Assembly: GCA_039714295.1 (NCBI GenBank) | Contig: JBDLJP010000001.1 | Coordinates: 1-29,826 of the forward strand | Length of the DNA stretch: 29,826 bases | Reading direction: 5' to 3' | Origin: Candidatus Fermentibacterota bacterium | GTDB taxonomy: Bacteria; Fermentibacterota; Fermentibacteria; Fermentibacterales; JCC-6 | Shown: piece after piece, positions 7,876 through 29,826 of the stretch | Layout: each line of letters begins with the position of its first letter | Numbering within the stretch: the first letter of the stretch is position 1 | Translations under genes and position numbers: made by a program | Notes under the pieces: generated by a model | What the model saw: only the letters and a program-made list of their open reading frames with translations | What the model was told of the DNA's origin: nothing | The model's database searches: none

Positions 7876-8502
7876 ATGAACTTCAGAGGAGCATTTATTA
7901 CAGGAAATCCTGTCACGGATGGCAGCGGGGCAGGACCCTGGCGCTGGTCAATGTTCCTGATCAGCCCCTTCACCTATTCCTTCTCACTTGCCTGTGTTTA
8001 CCTTGGCATGAGGGGAGTGATGAAACTCGGGGGATTTGTTGCGGTGGGGGGACCTTATGAGATAGCTCATCCGGCACCGGACTGGATATGGGTATTCCCT
8101 GTTTCGATAATGTTTATGATCGGATCGATGTTCGTCTCCCTTTTTTCGGCATCCCGAATCAGCGGTCCAAATATCATGGCTCTCTCCTGGTCGGGTCTGT
8201 TCACTCTGCTTGGATGGAACTTCGTTCAATTCGGTTTCGGTATAGGTATGGGGGGAAGTCTGGCATTCGGCTGGATAATATGCGCTGTGACGTTCATGCT
8301 AATGGGTCTGATCCCTCTTATCTTCATACTCAGATCATTTTTCCGATCCCTGGCCGAAAGAATGAACTCCGGAATTGAGACAGGTACCGGATCGACAGGC
8401 ACTGACGGGCAGCTTGCATGGAGTATCTCACTGATTCTTCAGGTTGCACTCTCCGTCGCCGGTTTCTGGCTGGGGCTGGTATTCTTCAAAGCAATATCAT
8501 GA
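7876..8502 (+). CDS. Uncharacterised multi-pass membrane protein
   Basis: About five hydrophobic helices and a GGPYEIAHPAP loop. GAGAGG RBS. Its stop overlaps the next start (ATGA 8499-8502). Confidence 0.75.
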   Translation: MNFRGAFITGNPVTDGSGAGPWRWSMFLISPFTYSFSLACVYLGMRGVMKLGGFVAVGGPYEIAHPAPDWIWVFPVSIMFMIGSMFVSLFSASRISGPNIMALSWSGLFTLLGWNFVQFGFGIGMGGSLAFGWIICAVTFMLMGLIPLIFILRSFFRSLAERMNSGIETGTGSTGTDGQLAWSISLILQVALSVAGFWLGLVFFKAIS

Positions 8503-9440
8503 TAGCGGCGGATCTGCATATCCATACAACATGCTCGGACGGCGAGTATTCTCCATCTGAGATAGTCCGCGCGGCAAAGGATTTGGGTTTCAATACCATA
8601 GCAGTCACTGATCATGATACGGTTTCGGGCATATCTGAAACCCTTTCCGCCGGAAGGGATGAAGGTATTGATGTTATTCCCGGAATCGAGATTACCGTGA
8701 AATTCCGCAGGGAGTATTTCACCGGATCGCTTCATGTGCTTGTCTATTTCTCTGAGGACCTTTTTCAAGACCGGGATTTCATCACCGAACTTGATGGAAT
8801 AGTTTCAAAGGGTCGCGGCCCGGCACTTGTTAAAGAGCGGGTCAGATGCATCAACGAAGAATTCGGTCCAGCCGGGAAGACTCCTCTGCTGACACAAAAC
8901 CTCACGGTTAAGGAGATTTCCAGCTATGCGAAGAATGTTTCCCGCAGACACTTCGCCAAGGCCCTGTCGGAAAGGCATGGGTTGTCCAAAGATAAGATAT
9001 CTCAGCTTATCGGCAACGACAGCCCTGCTTATGTGCCCTCGGGTGTCGATATGAAGCTACTGAAAAATATCTTCAGAAAATATCCTGTGATACCTGTTCT
9101 CGCCCACCCGGCTGCTGGTTCTTTTCCGGGGAAGGGTCACTACAAAGAGGTTCTCCCTCCCCTTGCCACAGTAGAAAGGATCCTTCCAGAGTTTCTTGAC
9201 CTGGGGGTTAAAGGTCTGGAGGTTTTCTATCCGGGGCATACACAGGAACATGTTGAATATCTACTTGATGTAGCCGGAAAACATGGTCTTGTCATCACTG
9301 GAGGCTCCGATTGCCACGACGATACACAGCGCCCTCTGCTCAAGCCCGGAATGGTCAGGGACATTTCCGCTTTTCTATCACTATACAGATCCTGTCTGAT
9401 GGAAGCCTGCCTGCCTGACCCTCAGATTATTCAGCGGTAA
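8499..9440 (+). CDS. PHP domain metal-dependent phosphoesterase (TrpH/YciV-like)
   Basis: DLHIHTTCSDG, AVTDHD, GIEI, HVL, LAHP and GGSDCH motifs. ATGA overlap with the upstream gene defines the start at 8499. Confidence 0.92.
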   Translation: MIAADLHIHTTCSDGEYSPSEIVRAAKDLGFNTIAVTDHDTVSGISETLSAGRDEGIDVIPGIEITVKFRREYFTGSLHVLVYFSEDLFQDRDFITELDGIVSKGRGPALVKERVRCINEEFGPAGKTPLLTQNLTVKEISSYAKNVSRRHFAKALSERHGLSKDKISQLIGNDSPAYVPSGVDMKLLKNIFRKYPVIPVLAHPAAGSFPGKGHYKEVLPPLATVERILPEFLDLGVKGLEVFYPGHTQEHVEYLLDVAGKHGLVITGGSDCHDDTQRPLLKPGMVRDISAFLSLYRSCLMEACLPDPQIIQR

Positions 9441-16412: not shown

Positions 16413-18089
16413 CTAGAAAAGACCCGTCACATTATCTTCATCATCAACATCCATCTTTACTGCCGCGGGAACCTTCGGCAGTCCGGGCATCCTCATGATT
16501 GATCCTGTGATGGGTACGAGGTATCCCGCTCCGGCGGATACTTCTATTTCTCTAACTGTAACAACGAAGTCCTTCGGTCTTCCAAGAAGCCTCGGATTAT
16601 CCGACAGGGATTTCTGCGTTTTCGCAATGCAGACAGGGAGTTTTTCGTAGCCGAGTCTCTTTATCATCCGCAGATCTTTTTTCGCCAGGGAAGTGTAATC
16701 GATGTGTTGGGCTCCATAAATCTCTCTGGCGACTGTTTCGATTTTCTCTTTCATACTCAGGTTCCAGTCGTAAAGAGGCTTGAAAGTGCCGATACAATCT
16801 TTTGCGTTCTCAACTACCAGGGAAGCCAGCTCTTCCATGCCGCTTCCCCCGTTTACAAATCCGTCTCCGACTGCAACTGGAACTCCCAGCTCGCAGCAGC
16901 GCTGAACCACAATATCAAGTTCAGCATCTGTATCGCTCATGAACCTGTTAACACAGATAACCGCCGGAAGGCCGAACTTGCCGATATTTTCTATATGCTT
17001 TTCCATATTGGGCAGACCTGCCGCTACAGCATCTTCATTCGGGGTTTGAAGGTCGCCTTTTGAAACACCGCCATGCATCTTAAGGGCTCTGCAGGTTACA
17101 ACAAGAACAACGAGACTTGGGCACAGTTTCCCGACCTGACACTTAATGTCGAAGAACTTCTCGGCTCCCAGATCAAAACCGAAACCAGCTTCGGTTATAG
17201 CCCAGTCGGAAAACGCTATCGCCATTTTTGTTGCAAGAAGAGAGTTGCAGCCATGTGCAATATTCGCGAAAGGCCCGCAATGAACAAACGCGGGATTCCC
17301 CTCAAGGGTCTGAACCAGATTGGGCTTGATCGCGTCCTTAAGGAGCATGGCCATGGCTCCGGTAACTCCCATTTCCTTGGCGGTCACCGCTTCCCGGTCG
17401 AATGTCAGCCCTATGAATATGCGGTCAATCCTCTTTTTAAGATCTACCATATCTGTAGCCAGGGAGAGTATAGCCATGATTTCGCTTGCTGCTGTTATAT
17501 CGAATCCGGATTCGCGCGGCACTCCCTGGGTTCTACCCCCAAGGCCAATAATTATGTCTCTTAAAGATCTGTCGTTCATATCCACTACGCGCTTGAAACT
17601 GACTGTCCTTGCATCCAGACGGGAGGGGTTTCCCCAGTGAAGGTGGTTGTCCAGCGCAGCGGCAAGAAGATTGTTTGCCGCCGTGATTGCATGCATATCC
17701 CCTGTGAAATGCAGGTTAATATCTTCCATGGGAATCACCTGTGAATAACCGCCGCCGGCAGCTCCGCCTTTCATGCCGAATATAGGGCCGAGAGATGGCT
17801 CCCTTACGGCACAGCTTACGGATTTTCCAAGCCTTGCCAGTCCCTGCGTAAGCCCTATTGTGGTTGTGGTCTTGCCGGCTCCAGCCGGTGTGGGTGTGAT
17901 AGCTGAGACAAGCACAAGTTTCCCGGCACCTCTTCTCTTCTTCACAAGGGTATCGAGATGTACTTTCGCTTTGTCATCACCGTACAGGTCGATATCCTCA
18001 GCGGAAAGACCAAGCTTCTGCGCGATCTCGATTATCGGGCGGGGAACAGCCTTGCTGGCTATTTCAATATCCGTCGGAAAAGTACTCAC
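16413..18089 (-). CDS. fhs: Formate--tetrahydrofolate ligase
   Basis: REPSLGP, KGGAAGGGYSQV, NLHFTGD, GPFANIAHG, TEAGFG-DLGAEKF and MRMPGLPK; 558 aa. Confidence 0.98.
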   Translation of the reverse strand: MSTFPTDIEIASKAVPRPIIEIAQKLGLSAEDIDLYGDDKAKVHLDTLVKKRRGAGKLVLVSAITPTPAGAGKTTTTIGLTQGLARLGKSVSCAVREPSLGPIFGMKGGAAGGGYSQVIPMEDINLHFTGDMHAITAANNLLAAALDNHLHWGNPSRLDARTVSFKRVVDMNDRSLRDIIIGLGGRTQGVPRESGFDITAASEIMAILSLATDMVDLKKRIDRIFIGLTFDREAVTAKEMGVTGAMAMLLKDAIKPNLVQTLEGNPAFVHCGPFANIAHGCNSLLATKMAIAFSDWAITEAGFGFDLGAEKFFDIKCQVGKLCPSLVVLVVTCRALKMHGGVSKGDLQTPNEDAVAAGLPNMEKHIENIGKFGLPAVICVNRFMSDTDAELDIVVQRCCELGVPVAVGDGFVNGGSGMEELASLVVENAKDCIGTFKPLYDWNLSMKEKIETVAREIYGAQHIDYTSLAKKDLRMIKRLGYEKLPVCIAKTQKSLSDNPRLLGRPKDFVVTVREIEVSAGAGYLVPITGSIMRMPGLPKVPAAVKMDVDDEDNVTGLF

Positions 18090-20160: not shown

Positions 20161-20278
20161 ATCTTGAGTTCAGCATCACGATACTGCTTGAGTTATCTTT
20201 TCCGGAATATCAGTACTATGTTTGAAGTGGCCCGAATCGATGTTTCATAATTCAAAAACTAAACGGCAGGAGAATACC

Positions 20279-21697
20279 TTGATTAAAACATTTTCCGTTT
20301 TCACTATTCTGCTGATTTCATCCATGTCCTTTGCACAAGCACCGGATACTCTCTGGACAAAGATATTCAACAATGAAGCCTGGGATGAGGTGCATCGCGT
20401 TATCCAGACTCCTGATAATGGTTATATAGGTGCTGGATGCTCAGGTGCACAAATACCGGAGAATAGATTATGGGTGATCAAAACAGATCAGAATGGTGAT
20501 CTGCAATGGGAGTTGTACCACGGCGACTCCCTGAATCCCAAAACCGGGGTGTCGGTGCTGATGACATCTGATGGAGGTTACCTGGTCACGGGAGAAACAT
20601 TTTACCCGGGAACCTGGTGGTCGGACATTACACTTTTCAAGCTGGACAGTGATGGGAGTATTGAACAGGAAGTATGCTTCGATATTGGACCTATGGATTA
20701 TGTTCGCGCTTCTGAGCAAACTTCAGACGGCGGTTATATACTTGCTGGAGGTACCGCAGGCACAAACCTTGATTCTTTTCTGCTGAAAATCGATTCAGAA
20801 TACAACACTGAATGGACAACAACAACAGGAGGAAATCAGGATGAACAATTCTATTCCGTTCAGCAGACTTCAGACGGCGGTTATATAGCTGCAGGTTACA
20901 CAAGATCCTTTGGCTCAGGCAGCTCTGACCATTACATGGTGAAGTTTGATTCCTTAGGAAATGTGGAGTGGGAAGAATTTTTCGGAGGTACGGGATTTGA
21001 CATGGCATGTGCTGCACGTCAGACTCAAGACGGTGGATACATCATTGTTGGATTTATGCAGCAGGTGAGTTCAACGAAAGATCTTTATGTTGTCAAAACA
21101 GATTGCGATGGTAATACGGAGTGGGATCTTATTCTGGATCGCAGCGATTTTGACAATGCTATATCATTCCTCGAAACTTCAGATGGAAGTTACATATTAA
21201 CAGGAGTAACATCCAAAGATCTCTGGCTTCTGAAGCTGGATAATACAGGCAGCGTTCTTTGGGAAACGGCGATAGGTTTACCCAATCCGAATGAGTCTGG
21301 TCGTTCAATTCAGCAGACCGTTGATGGAGGATACATTGTTGCAGGCTCCAGAAATACCAGTGCAGGACAGCTTGATTTCTGGCTTGTCAAGTTCGGCCCG
21401 GAACTTGGTATTTCTCAAGCTCCACAAGCATTTATCGATGTTCAAATTTCCGCAGTATTACCAAACCCATTTACCTCAAGCCTTCAGATCAACTGTTTTC
21501 TTCCAAGCTCAGGACATATGAATCTGTCAGTATATGACTTTGCAGGAAGACTTGTTGAGCATCTGGAAAGCTCTGACGTTTACTCCGGAAAGCACACTTT
21601 CTTGTGGGACCCTGATCCTCTTCTTCCCTCAGGCTGTTATATGGTAGTTCTGGACGCTCTCGGGAAACAGGATGTAACATGGTGTATCAAGATTTAA
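20279..21697 (+). CDS. Secreted repeat (beta-propeller-like, TxDGGYIxxG) protein with T9SS type-A-like C-terminal domain
   Basis: AGGAG RBS plus TTG 20279, and a signal peptide ending SFA. About seven QTxDGGYI repeats at ~49-aa spacing. C-terminal LPNPF...YDFAGRLV...SGCY. Confidence 0.88.
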   Translation: MIKTFSVFTILLISSMSFAQAPDTLWTKIFNNEAWDEVHRVIQTPDNGYIGAGCSGAQIPENRLWVIKTDQNGDLQWELYHGDSLNPKTGVSVLMTSDGGYLVTGETFYPGTWWSDITLFKLDSDGSIEQEVCFDIGPMDYVRASEQTSDGGYILAGGTAGTNLDSFLLKIDSEYNTEWTTTTGGNQDEQFYSVQQTSDGGYIAAGYTRSFGSGSSDHYMVKFDSLGNVEWEEFFGGTGFDMACAARQTQDGGYIIVGFMQQVSSTKDLYVVKTDCDGNTEWDLILDRSDFDNAISFLETSDGSYILTGVTSKDLWLLKLDNTGSVLWETAIGLPNPNESGRSIQQTVDGGYIVAGSRNTSAGQLDFWLVKFGPELGISQAPQAFIDVQISAVLPNPFTSSLQINCFLPSSGHMNLSVYDFAGRLVEHLESSDVYSGKHTFLWDPDPLLPSGCYMVVLDALGKQDVTWCIKI

Positions 21698-26756: not shown

Positions 26757-26993
26757 TCAGTAATCGACTTCTTTTGAAACCCCGTGCGCAATAACCGCAG
26801 GGGCATGCCTTGTATTGATTGCCTTGTTTGGCAGTAGAGCCGGTCTGCCCAGTACAATTGGATACTGATTGCCACAGTAAGTACATCTCATCTTACCCGA
26901 TCTGATGTCACCATTTCGCTTTGTCGTGTTATGAATTGACAGATGTCCCCTGCATTCTGGGCATCTGAGATATTCAAGAGCTGTACTCTGCAT
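26757..26993 (-). CDS. Trm112-like zinc-binding protein (possibly a truncated remnant)
   Basis: LEYLRCPECRG...G-MRCTYCGNQYPIVLGRPALL, with two CxxC motifs. Confidence 0.75.
   Translation of the reverse strand: MQSTALEYLRCPECRGHLSIHNTTKRNGDIRSGKMRCTYCGNQYPIVLGRPALLPNKAINTRHAPAVIAHGVSKEVDY
26780..26803. terminator. GC-rich bulged hairpin (terminator or REP-like) inside the 3' end of the Trm112-like ORF
   Basis: CCCC-G-TGCG / CGCA-GGGG with a 7-nt loop, 23 nt after the stop of the + strand gene. Confidence 0.45.
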
Positions 26994-27235
26994 AAAACTC
27001 CTTCTGTTTTGTTGACGCTATAAAATCTAATGTAACAATATGTTAGCGGAATTGTCAAGAATTGACAGGCAGGATTATGATTCGTATATAGAATGTGTAA
27101 ATTAAGTAGATCGTTTCGTATCGGATTGCGCATAACCAGTTACTACACTATTTGTTACATCTATTTCAAGGGTAGAGCCAGAGGCAGCAACTTTTCTAGC
27201 GCACAACGGTAGACAATATTCGAACTATTCTGATG

Positions 27236-27340
27236 AATTATCCTGCAGAAGTAGGTCCCTGGAGAAAACTCATCAAGTTGAACAGCATGAGATCCCTCTG
27301 AATACTCATTCTCCTGAATCTCACTGACTAGCCTACCAGA
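27236..27340 (-). pseudogene. Orphan fragment of a T9SS-type C-terminal sorting domain
   Basis: Hand translation gives SGRLVSEIQENEYSEGSHAVQLDEFSPGTYFCRII. This matches the xGRxV...GxY pattern of the three intact CTDs in this window. No ATG/GTG/TTG upstream in frame. Confidence 0.6.
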
Positions 27341-27734
27341 CCTCCGCCAATACCCCTGGAAATGGTTTATGAACCCGATGTGGATTGCATTCCATGGCAG
27401 GAAGATGTTCCGGAGATAGAGGTTGGATAAGCTATCAGCGATCTGGCTTTCATCGGTGAGGTTTGTAACAATGTTTAGTTTTCAAGGGATCGGTGGGTTT
27501 CTTCATTGACGACGGAGGAATTTAGGTAGTATTGTCAGTTTCTGTAGATTTCCACAGGACCGTAAGGGTTTTGGTTATGCTGGTAGCCGGGATCATTCGG
27601 GAACCACAAGCTTCTGGCATGCTGGTTTCAGGCAGAAATTGGAGGTTTATCGGGACGAATGGGCTGCTTTGGAGCAGGAAATGGGATTATGGAAAATCTA
27701 TTTTCCTACTGCGTGCGTTAGAATCGGTATCGCA

Positions 27735-27938
27735 ATGAATACCCGCGAAACGCCGTCGCATCATTACGCGCTTGCGCATGTGGTGTTGCGCAAGGTATTC
27801 CGTCAGAACCCTGTGAAGTTCTTCGACATCCATGACTTGAACGTGGGCACCTTCAGGATCAGAGATTTCCCCGGAATCATCCTGAAGAGCGAGTCGAATC
27901 CGGAGGATTTTGCCTTTGCCCTAGAGGACAGGCTCTGA
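27735..27938 (+). CDS. Small hypothetical protein immediately upstream of the PHP-sensor gene
   Basis: 67 aa from ATG 27735 (MNTRETPSHHYALAH...), with GC3-rich codons like the downstream gene. Stop is 2 nt before GTG 27941. The frame is open further upstream, so the start is uncertain. Confidence 0.4.
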   Translation: MNTRETPSHHYALAHVVLRKVFRQNPVKFFDIHDLNVGTFRIRDFPGIILKSESNPEDFAFALEDRL

Positions 27939-27946
27939 CCGTGCGG

Positions 27947-29826
27947 ATGAAGGTTGATTTCCACCTTCACTCCAACCTGAGTGACGGGGCCTTCTCCCCC
28001 GAAATCCTTGCAGGGAAGGTCGTGGACGCAGGCATCCGCTTTGCCGCCCTGACGGATCATAATGATTTGTCGGGCAACCGCCGGTTCATGGAGGTCTTCG
28101 AACGGCACGGCGGTACAGCCCTGACCGGAATCGAACTTTCCTCCCTCTTTCGGAACCGCGGCATCCATATTCTCGGTTACGGCCTGGATCCGGATGACAC
28201 CGGGATCCGTTCCCTCTTCTTCCGGCTTCCCAGCGCCCGGCAAATTATCGCGCATATCCATTCAGCCGGAGGAATCGCCTTCCTCGCTCACCCCCTGGAG
28301 ACATGGCCTGATCCTGACGAATTGAACGAAGCCGTGGCTGAACTGAAGAAGGTAGGCCTGGACGGGATCGAGGCTCTGTATAAACCCTATACCCCGGAAC
28401 AGCAGGCTTCACTTCTCGACCTTGCCGACAGGCACGGGCTCAAGGTCTGCGCAGGCAGTGATTATCACGGCCCAAACCTGCCGGGAAGTCCCGATCCCGG
28501 GATCGAGATTGAATCCTCCCGGTGGAAAGCTTTTCGGAATGCTCTTCCGATCTTCCACGTGGAGGAGGATGCGATGCCGGCCCCGCCACCATCGGCACAT
28601 CCTCGAATCCCTCACCATCATGCCCGCATACCGCTCCCCATCCTTCTTCCGGCCGTCGTCGCGATCACGCTCTTTCTTTTTGTCATATTCGGAATCGTCA
28701 TTCCTTCCTTCGAAGAGAATCTCCTCAACAGGAAACGGGAGATGATACGGGAACTGACCAACTCCGCGTGGAGCATCCTTTCGGAATGCAATCGGGCCGC
28801 GGAGCAGGGCCTGCTATCCGAGACCGAGGCCCGGAACACGGCCAGGAGCCAGGTTAGGGCGCTCAGATACGGGCCTGAAGCAAAGGACTACTTCTGGATC
28901 ACGGATACCGTGCCCCGCATGATCATGCACCCTTACCGTTCCGACCTGGACGGCCAGGACCTTTCGAACTTCAGCGATCCCAATGGAGTCCGGCTCTTCG
29001 TAGAATTCGTCAGGGCTGTCGAACACGACGACCATGGGTATGTCGATTACGTCTGGCAATGGAAAGACGATCCGGAGCGGATCGTGCCGAAGGAATCGTA
29101 TGTCCGCATCTTCCGGCCCTGGGGCTGGATCATCGGAACCGGCCTGTACCTTGAGGATGTCAGGACCGAGATCCAGGTCATCACGAACCGGATCATCCTC
29201 ATCTCCCTCTTCGTGGTGGCGGTCATGGCTGGACTTCTCGCGTACATGGTCCTGCAAAACCTTAAAGCGGAAGAGATGCGGCGGCTGGCCGAGGAAGGAC
29301 TTCGGGACTCCCACGACCGGTACCGGACCCTGGTGGAGACCGCTACCGAAGGGACGCTCTTGGTTCTCAACGGGCGCTGCGCTTTTGCCAATCCGACCTT
29401 CCTGCGCATGACCGGCTATTCCCCGTCGGAATTCAAGCTGCTCGATCTCGACGATTTCTTTCCCAATTCCGCCGGTCTTTTCGCTGCAGAGACGACGAAG
29501 AATCGATCGGCTTTGGAACAGGCTCCAGCCGAGGAGACAGGCGGCATCGAGACTACCCTTCTGCGGAAGCACGGCACTTCGCTCGAGGTGGTCCTAGCAT
29601 CCCATTCCGTTGATATCGGGGGCTCTCCCGGCCGAATCGTGATCATCAAGGACCTGCGCCAGGTGCGAAACCACGACCGCAACGCCATCCTCAACCAGCT
29701 CCAGACCTCGCTCCTCTTCCTTAACGAACCCCTGGAAACGGTCATGCAGCCCCTCCACACATGTCCCATGGATTGTACCGTGGAGAAGGCGGCCCGCATC
29801 ATGGTCCGCGAGAAGGCCACCATACT
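27947..29826 (+). CDS. PHP phosphoesterase-TM-Cache_2-TM-PAS-CBS multidomain sensor protein (3' truncated by window edge; not in supplied ORF track)
   Basis: Hand translation shows no stop from ATG 27947 (or GTG 27941) to the window end. PHP: DFHLHSNLSDG, LTDHND, GIE, HIL, LAHP, GSDYHG. TM1: ILLPAVVAITLFLFVIFGIVIP. Cache_2: RYG..DYFWI..MIMHPY..YVWQW..PKESY..WIIGTGLYLEDV. Then TM2, PAS (YRTLVET..FANPTFLRMTGYS) and a CBS start (TCPMDCTVEKAARIM). Confidence 0.93.
   Translation, partial: MKVDFHLHSNLSDGAFSPEILAGKVVDAGIRFAALTDHNDLSGNRRFMEVFERHGGTALTGIELSSLFRNRGIHILGYGLDPDDTGIRSLFFRLPSARQIIAHIHSAGGIAFLAHPLETWPDPDELNEAVAELKKVGLDGIEALYKPYTPEQQASLLDLADRHGLKVCAGSDYHGPNLPGSPDPGIEIESSRWKAFRNALPIFHVEEDAMPAPPPSAHPRIPHHHARIPLPILLPAVVAITLFLFVIFGIVIPSFEENLLNRKREMIRELTNSAWSILSECNRAAEQGLLSETEARNTARSQVRALRYGPEAKDYFWITDTVPRMIMHPYRSDLDGQDLSNFSDPNGVRLFVEFVRAVEHDDHGYVDYVWQWKDDPERIVPKESYVRIFRPWGWIIGTGLYLEDVRTEIQVITNRIILISLFVVAVMAGLLAYMVLQNLKAEEMRRLAEEGLRDSHDRYRTLVETATEGTLLVLNGRCAFANPTFLRMTGYSPSEFKLLDLDDFFPNSAGLFAAETTKNRSALEQAPAEETGGIETTLLRKHGTSLEVVLASHSVDIGGSPGRIVIIKDLRQVRNHDRNAILNQLQTSLLFLNEPLETVMQPLHTCPMDCTVEKAARIMVREKATI

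Follow-up and report, generated by a model that had tools for sequence, protein, structure and literature searches.

What would a metal-dependent phosphoesterase be doing at the front of a transmembrane receptor? The question is raised by the 3' end of a 29,826-nucleotide stretch of DNA from a Candidatus Fermentibacterota bacterium (contig JBDLJP010000001.1; here, the window), which is an entire contig (C1) of a 2.38-Mb, 474-contig metagenome-assembled genome (MAG; 88% complete). There, a PHP domain is followed in one frame by membrane helices, a Cache domain, a PAS domain, and the start of a CBS pair. PHP domains are metal-dependent phosphoesterases, Cache domains sense extracytoplasmic ligands, and CBS domains bind adenine nucleotides; the DUF294/COG2905 family, which supplies the other end of the protein, was defined in 1999 and is widespread. 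Here, we report that this frame is the 5' part of a real gene for a 1064-aa membrane receptor, split by a contig break, and we propose that its product is a carboxylate-gated switch that adds nucleotides to a protein and removes them again on one polypeptide, a reading to which we give an even chance.

Gene structure and continuity

A frame without stop codons runs from a GTG at 27941 to the last base of the window. The ATG at 27947 is the start used in relatives, and 626 codons lie between it and the window end. A preliminary description of this DNA had reported a stop-free frame of at least 626 codons missed by the track of open reading frames (ORFs), which is confirmed; the ORF listing omitted the gene because the frame is open at its 3' end, the window being the whole contig. 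The relative P0002 (1064 aa, 94% identical, full length) goes on into a CBS pair, DUF294, and DUF294_C, and contig C372, also in this MAG, encodes the counterpart of its C-terminal 439 residues. Where C1 ends and C372 begins, the two contigs have six bases (CATACT) in common, the frame is uninterrupted over the overlap, and the joined coding sequence (3192 nt, no internal stops) equals the G003 and P0002 orthologues in length. A profile search of the C372 fragment gave CBS (36-86), DUF294 (115-253; 159.6 bits), and DUF294_C (290-432; 120.9 bits), the only DUF294 gene in the MAG. The continuation into a DUF294 nucleotidyltransferase (NTase), which the preliminary description had suggested, is present on C372 and in more than 100 relatives.

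Scaffold L004 (96% identical) crosses both the upstream junction and the C1/C372 junction continuously. Logan contigs from four runs were compared with positions 27600-29826. The 1967-nt X1 contig spans 27873-29820, linker included, with 0 gaps; the 2751-nt X5 contig, from an independent cold-seep run, spans 27917-29823 with 60 substitutions and 0 indels; and the X2, X4, and X5 contigs extend beyond 29823 into the start sequence of C372. A chance frame was ruled out by the gap-free X1 and X5 contigs, as was a frameshift or mis-join at the linker, named beforehand as grounds for abandoning the frame. A chimeric contig, suspected from a jump in GC content (0.48 to 0.59) at ~27.8 kb, was likewise ruled out, since L004 shows the same GC pattern continuously over both junctions and the independent contigs agree.

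Two details of these contigs were recorded. The X1 contig stops matching at 29820 and passes into Illumina adapter sequence (AGATCGGAAGAGC...), and adapter read-through is probably the cause of the C1/C372 assembly break. One high-depth (39x) X2 contig has an in-frame 3-nt deletion at window position 28432, close to where the PHP domain ends; a related strain is its probable source.

The domain order is PHP, transmembrane helix, sCache_2, transmembrane helix, PAS, CBS pair, DUF294, and DUF294_C. The part encoded in the window is as follows (pLDDT, predicted local distance difference test):

27947-29826, forward strand: 5' part (626 codons plus 2 bases) of the 1064-codon gene; remainder at bases 5-1321 of L002 (contig C372, same MAG)
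27947-28561, forward strand: PHP phosphoesterase domain (~205 aa), cytoplasmic, with a complete trinuclear metal site and without the TrpH/RNase AM insertion domain (PF02811, ligand codons, Foldseek)
28562-28630, forward strand: Pro/His-rich disordered linker (model pLDDT <50 at residues 207-228; 0 indels in the X1 and X5 contigs)
28628-28708, forward strand: transmembrane helix 1 (hydropathy scan; in the model, a long helix, 229-286, into Cache)
28727-29176, forward strand: extracytoplasmic sCache_2 sensor with a C2/C3-carboxylate-type pocket (PF17200, PDB matches, pocket codons)
29177-29263, forward strand: transmembrane helix 2 (hydropathy scan, model)
29318-29656, forward strand: cytoplasmic PAS domain (PF00989, PF13426, and TIGR00229 above cut-offs)
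29738-29826, forward strand: first part of the CBS pair, truncated where the contig ends (P0002 CBS matches, PDB CBS alignments)

Pfam placed sCache_2 at residues 263-412 and PAS at 460-572, both above cut-offs; the hydropathy scan gave hydrophobic segments at ~230-256 and ~413-441, on either side of Cache, and comparison with P0002 assigns the final ~30 residues to the beginning of the CBS pair. The series of transmembrane helix, Cache_2, transmembrane helix, PAS, and CBS start proposed at first sight therefore stands. The PHP domain lies in the cytoplasm, sCache_2 in the periplasm between the two helices, and PAS, the CBS pair, DUF294, and DUF294_C in the cytoplasm. As had been claimed, PHP precedes transmembrane helix 1 on the same membrane side as PAS, CBS, and the NTase and opposite to Cache.

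PHP domain

Profile PF02811 matched with 33.5 bits (cut-off, 26.4). Every metal-ligand motif listed in the preliminary description was found (residue numbers of PHP and Cache positions count from the GTG at 27941): H8-x-H10, D15, T38-D39-H40, E65, H76, A116-H117-P118, and D174-x-H176. The nine ligands (H8, H10, D15, H40, E65, H76, H117, D174, and H176; codons at 27962, 27968, 27983, 28058, 28133, 28166, 28289, 28460, and 28466) were mapped onto the RNase AM ligands by PMC9410882 and are invariant in 48 relatives (41-47% identity), the set used for all conservation counts. An inactive PHP domain had been named at the outset as telling against the idea; because the metal site is invariant, the domain is probably active.

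The nearest structures found with Foldseek were RNase AM (7UG9, template modeling [TM] score 0.84; 9ETK), 3O0F, and Cv1693. With TrpH/YciV (RNase AM) and Cv1693-type PHP proteins (7UG9, 9ETK, 2YB1, and 3O0F) the domain shares the distorted (beta/alpha)7 barrel and all nine ligands of the three-metal center, whereas it lacks their ~70-residue Arg/Phe insertion domain, has NCBIfam scores far below cut-offs, and is fused to a membrane receptor. Alignments to TrpH/RNase AM-type structures were split in two pieces, omitting chain residues ~111-181. In RNase AM's insertion domain, Arg107, Arg110, Arg141, and Phe161 hold the 5'-phosphate and base (PMC9410882); domain and pocket are missing from the fused PHP. 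The best NCBIfam match, a 3',5'-nucleoside bisphosphate phosphatase, reached about a quarter of its cut-off (equivalogs NF047791, 104 bits versus 400, and NF041577, 78 bits versus 375). Membership in the TrpH, RNase AM, or 3'-phosphoadenosine 5'-phosphate (pAp) phosphatase (CysQ-like) equivalogs was ruled out by these scores and the missing insertion domain. We regard the fused PHP as a "lidless" paralogue outside the TrpH/RNase AM/pAp-phosphatase families, predicted from its residues to be catalytically competent.

A separate 340-aa TrpH-like PHP protein is encoded at 8418-9440 (forward strand). It keeps the insertion domain (94 bits versus an NCBIfam cut-off of 400), and its alignment with the fused PHP likewise falls in two pieces that skip the insertion; it is likely the genome's ordinary PHP phosphoesterase.

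Cache sensor

Profile PF17200 matched the Cache domain with 121 bits (E value, 5e-35), and its only sequence matches in the PDB were 4K08 (E value, 1.6e-37), 5G4Y/5G4Z (5G4Y E value, 2e-30), 2QHK, and 4EXO. The Cache model superposed on 4K08 and 5G4Y with a TM score of 0.92 each. PscD (5G4Y) takes acetate, glycolate, propionate, and pyruvate via Tyr90, Trp92, His103, Phe126, Tyr143, Trp145, and Lys156 (Brewster et al., PMC5062169), and the same paper gives acetate in the 4K08 pocket and pyruvate in that of a Vibrio domain. All seven PscD contact residues (chain numbering in the alignment being the paper's shifted by 9) are identical here, as Y317, W319, H330, F353, Y370, W372, and K384 (codons at 28889, 28895, 28928, 28997, 29048, 29054, and 29090), and all seven are invariant in the relatives. 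The pocket residues strongly predict a C2/C3 carboxylate, an acetate-like acid, as ligand. Compared with the sCache_2 sensors PscD (5G4Y), McpP, and Adeh_3718 (4K08), the domain has 39-44% identity, with PscD Met129 replaced by Phe; the difference lies in the output, which here is an NTase plus a phosphoesterase and not a methyl-accepting chemotaxis protein signaling domain or a histidine kinase.

Nucleotidyltransferase module

The NTase module, modeled from the genome's own sequence, reached a pLDDT of 94 and a predicted TM score (pTM) of 0.91. Against the PDB at E values of 1e-3 or below, the model matched four chains only, from DrrA and both GlnE domains (3K7D, 1V4A), with DrrA 6YX5_B at an E value of 5.7e-8 and TM scores of 0.69/0.69. 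Aminoglycoside NTases, MntA, HalB, and the terminal uridylyltransferase (TUTase) had E values above 0.02 and TM scores of at most ~0.3, and the top 30 hits in a search of Swiss-Prot models were all GlnE. The nearest folds of the modeled module are thus protein-tyrosine AMPylating enzymes. The G-S...D-x-D motif (G73-S74, D85-x-D87) and D168 are invariant, and DUF294_C belongs to the Pfam clan KNTase_C, of the GlnE/GlnD-type helical substrate-binding domain. A PDB sequence search gave no match reaching past the CBS domains, and no DUF294 structure was found in this way; with GlnE/GlnD profiles, the one match was a weak, sub-threshold GlnD_UR_UTase hit in a single relative (19.7 bits versus a cut-off of 21). 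The preliminary description had called the NTase GlnD-like; the nearest fold is GlnE/DrrA instead of GlnD.

Phosphoesterase partners and symporters in relatives

A scan of species-representative genomes gave 597 related stretches, of which the best 80 loci were analyzed. PHP is fused to the sensor in 25 of these, spread over Spirochaetota, Aminicenantes, Chloroflexota, Planctomycetota, Actinomycetota, Gemmatimonadota, NC10, Sumerlaeota, and others. The preliminary description had called PHP unusual for membrane receptors: the architecture is in fact common in metagenomes, though it has gone without characterization. Three further loci carry PHP as its own gene, ending ~35 nt upstream of the sensor. 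Elsewhere the position is taken by an immediately adjoining Metallophos gene of ~250 aa (23/80), by a PAS-RNase_T exonuclease gene immediately upstream (7/80; Desulfobacterales, with cNMP-CBS-DUF294, acs, and an SSF gene nearby; cNMP, cyclic nucleoside monophosphate), or by a GAF-HD gene immediately upstream (2/80). A PHP, Metallophos, RNase_T, or HD partner is fused or adjoining in 60 of the 80 loci, and four unrelated metal phosphoesterases take the same position beside one NTase. One locus (L009) shows a natural split into a PHP-Cache gene and a CBS-DUF294 gene.

Within 1 kb of the sensor, the density of SSF symporter genes is 2.48 per 10 kb, compared with 0.026 per 10 kb at 6-10 kb (~95-fold), and 57 of 79 classified loci have one within 5 kb. 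These monocarboxylate-type sodium symporters score above the curated cut-off of the VC_2705 family or are closest to MctC/ActP, and they are accompanied by DUF485 or DUF4212 small subunits.

Several observations on these neighborhoods were made in passing. The GAF-HD (HD_5) genes (L065:8678-9850, cyanobacterial MAG; L072:8675-9847, Desulfocapsaceae MAG) lie 49-109 nt upstream of Cache-PAS-CBS-DUF294 and add a fourth phosphoesterase type, from the superfamily of the GlnD uridylyl-removing domain. DUF485-linked MctC/ActP-like symporters beside PHP-fused sensors carry a soluble insertion of ~170 residues after the fifth hydrophobic segment (L050:8589-9131 and 15 others), with conserved W276-W277, N304-G305-x-P307, and R381-P382-G383; it had no Pfam match, its Atlas scores (~0.81) were at chance level, and it is a candidate regulatory or target domain. 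The cultured strain Desulfobacter vibrioformis DSM 8776 (L059, 549-7800) has three tandem Cache-PAS-DUF294 paralogues of 830-860 aa.

Comparison with COG2905-type systems

In pseudomonads, a cNMP-CBS-DUF294 gene and its RNase_T neighbor (PP_0354/PP_0353; Pflu5625) are direct targets of CrbS/R (MxtR/ErdR), and DUF294/COG2905 genes are among those most strongly controlled by this acetate/pyruvate regulator. In Pseudomonas putida, deletion of the exonuclease gene pp_0353 gives a pyruvate defect equal to that of an actP-I deletion, and deletion of the NTase gene pp_0354 gives none (PMC9927547). This mutant pattern suggests that the two enzymes oppose each other, with an inhibitory NTase product that the phosphoesterase clears. 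Genes of COG2905 are also cofit with a DUF4212/SSF lactate and D-alanine symporter (Price et al., bioRxiv 10.1101/072470).

The COG2905-type proteins (P. putida PP_0354/PP_0353, P. fluorescens Pflu5625) have the same CBS-DUF294-DUF294_C output module as the present family and, like it, are paired with a metal-dependent phosphoesterase and linked to an ActP/YjcH or DUF4212/SSF symporter and to acs. They differ in input, which is cytoplasmic cNMP-binding domains there (the canonical form is seen in L086) and is replaced here by PHP and the membrane-embedded assembly of extracytoplasmic sCache_2, its two flanking transmembrane helices, and PAS. The phosphoesterase is a separate DEDDh exonuclease there and an N-terminally fused PHP here, and the symporter partner was not found in the present genome. 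A literature search found no paper joining a PHP domain, Cache, nucleotidyltransferase, and CBS. The PHP-Cache protein would be a variant of known themes, namely GlnE/GlnD-like reversible nucleotidylation and COG2905 plus a phosphoesterase.

Proposed mechanism and alternatives

In the proposed switch, the NTase would transfer a nucleoside monophosphate (NMP), probably AMP, onto a target protein's hydroxyl, and PHP would hydrolyze the NMP-protein phosphodiester, as writer and eraser, in the manner of GlnD (NTase plus HD) or DrrA with SidD. Binding of a carboxylate outside, relayed by transmembrane helix 2 and PAS, would tip the balance of NTase versus PHP activity, and the CBS pair would supply an adenine-nucleotide (energy) input. 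In most relatives, the target would likely be the neighboring symporter system. A bulky substrate, probably a protein, is favored by the predicted NTase fold and the loss of the PHP nucleotide pocket.

GlnE, DrrA/SidD, and GlnD are writers paired with a separate hydrolytic or phosphorolytic remover. The significant structural matches of the modeled NTase are GlnE and DrrA alone, and the present protein has the Pol-beta G-S...D-x-D motif, together with a helical domain for substrate binding, in common with the group of GlnE, DrrA/SidM with its de-AMPylase SidD, and GlnD; the proposed writer/eraser logic would also be shared. The remover differs, being PHP here and an NTase-fold AR domain, a PP2C-like SidD, or HD there, and regulation would run through transmembrane Cache, PAS, and CBS, not PII and glutamine.

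The add/remove idea put forward in the preliminary description has gained strong comparative support, from the GlnE/DrrA-like fold predicted for the NTase and from the Metallophos, RNase_T, or HD genes adjoining it where PHP is missing; the symporter link was absent from that account and is found here. Four unrelated phosphoesterases at the eraser position narrow the chemistry they have in common to taking a nucleotide off a hydroxyl. The fused form unites a predictable ligand (C2/C3 carboxylate), a GlnE/DrrA-like writer, and a candidate eraser in one polypeptide, and makes DUF294/COG2905 function directly testable.

Several points weigh against a protein-nucleotidylation switch. A literature search on DUF294 found no biochemical study (most matches concerned DUF2946). 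Sequence identity of the NTase to GlnE/DrrA is only 13-18% despite the likeness in fold. Substrates of the nearest PHP relatives and of the RNase_T partners are RNA or nucleotides, not proteins, and enzymes of the HD_5 and Metallophos types often hydrolyze signaling nucleotides. About 20 of the 80 loci have no adjoining phosphoesterase, several of them at contig ends. The full-length AlphaFold2 model has a pTM of 0.50, at which contacts between domains are not interpretable. The most plausible target is missing: no DUF485, DUF4212, or ActP/MctC-like symporter was found on the contig, on C372, in the present MAG (G000), or in the related G003, genomes that are 86-88% complete. Lastly, the ratio of nonsynonymous to synonymous substitution rates (dN/dS) is ~0.33 in the PHP and NTase domains, looser than in the sensor, on few substitutions.

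The protein could instead be a second-messenger pair, in which carboxylate prompts the DUF294 NTase to produce a diffusible nucleotide signal (an oligonucleotide, linear or cyclic, or a nucleotide adduct) and PHP degrades it, comparable to GGDEF-EAL or CD-NTase/phosphodiesterase systems. PHP proteins of the TrpH/RNase AM type do hydrolyze pAp, dinucleotides, and 5'-phosphorylated RNA, the RNase_T, Metallophos, and HD_5 superfamilies include nucleotide-signal phosphodiesterases, and the Pseudomonas epistasis is equally compatible with an inhibitory messenger. We nevertheless think this unlikely, as the significant matches of the modeled NTase are protein AMPylases only (NTases that form oligonucleotides, such as HalB and TUTase, have E values above 0.2 and low TM scores), DUF294_C provides a helical domain of GlnE/GlnD type for binding substrate (clan KNTase_C), and the insertion domain with which small nucleotides are held by 5'-phosphate and base is missing from the fused PHP.

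Remodeling of RNA ends would have the NTase lengthen a specific RNA, such as the symporter mRNA, at its 3' end and PHP, RNase_T, or Metallophos trim it, so that the symporter is controlled post-transcriptionally. A role of COG2905 in getting the symporter expressed was a speculation of Price et al. (bioRxiv 10.1101/072470), and the P. putida authors speculated on mRNA degradation (PMC9927547). The closest PHP relatives are 5'-3' exoribonucleases (7UG9, 9ETK), and the RNase_T partners come from the 3'-5' exoribonuclease/DnaQ family. Yet the enzyme is membrane anchored and has no RNA-binding domain, CCA-adding, poly(A), and TUTase NTases are not among the significant fold matches, and the HD and Metallophos partners are not typical exoribonucleases, all of which makes this reading decidedly unlikely.

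If the nucleotidylation switch is right, the family may, more tentatively, form a distinct transmembrane signaling class in which extracellular acetate, propionate, or pyruvate leads to the reversible AMPylation, or other nucleotidylation, of a protein in the cytoplasm or membrane, the same chain carrying writer and eraser, without a histidine kinase, chemoreceptor, or cyclase; the orphan Fermentibacteria copy would then act on a target other than an ActP-type symporter. Regulated protein nucleotidylation would, if the switch holds, join the bacterial transmembrane signaling routes and the control of short-chain organic acid uptake.

Occurrence in the Fermentibacteria lineage

Of the named genomes in the species-representative scan, the closest is a MAG of Candidatus Fermentibacteria. 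Two of 19 genomes sampled in the genus carry the gene; 0 of 10 further genomes from the order do. GC content is 0.59 across the sensor gene (27700-29826) and ~0.48 for the contig, with the same pattern in L004, and falls back to 0.43-0.51 in the C372 and L004 flanks. Because of this GC rise and the patchy distribution in the genus, the gene was likely acquired laterally, without its usual partner, and its target in this lineage would therefore not be the symporter. The sole SSF protein of the genome, on C259, is a distant relative (26% identity), and no Acs was found in G000 (86-88% completeness range). Compared with G003, dN/dS is 0.27 overall and 0.02 for the segment from transmembrane helix 1 through Cache to transmembrane helix 2; the gene is under purifying selection.

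Upstream of the sensor gene lies one further feature:

27639-27938, forward strand: 99-aa remnant, with an internal deletion, of a gene of 200 aa without a Pfam match; in close relatives, the full gene lies directly before the sensor (L004, 818-1420)

This ORF ends 3-9 nt ahead of the sensor gene. The deletion in it, the GC contrast and sparse distribution, the failure to find DUF485, DUF4212, or ActP-like genes in either carrier, and the looser dN/dS of the catalytic domains would all suit a recently transferred passenger, severed from its symporter and now idle or decaying. We consider this very unlikely, since the 3192-nt ORF is intact in G000, G003, and several independent metagenome populations (X5 keeps it through 60 substitutions without an indel), the catalytic and pocket residues are all in place, and the overall and sensor dN/dS values are those given above. 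Hardly credible at all is a PHP domain that is an independent housekeeping pAp phosphatase or nanoRNase with a functionally meaningless fusion: a 3',5'-nucleoside bisphosphate phosphatase is indeed its best NCBIfam match, but at 104 bits versus 400 and without the insertion domain, the genome has the full-length TrpH-like gene at 8418-9440 besides, and the fusion is kept across many phyla, also as split adjoining genes, and replaced by three other phosphoesterase families.

Other observations

Upstream of the remnant, 26757-27638 (~0.9 kb) has no ORF of at least 120 aa, and a GC skew spike of +0.38 lies at 27400-27699; within this stretch, 27336-27539 shares 73% identity with the L004 sequence upstream of the sensor. 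Rfam and tRNA scans of the window gave no RNA genes. Elsewhere, the contig encodes a formate-tetrahydrofolate ligase (16413-18089, reverse strand) and, at 20222-21697 (forward strand), a protein with a weak, sub-threshold match to a type IX secretion system C-terminal sorting domain, which would fit an FCB-group or Fermentibacteria origin.

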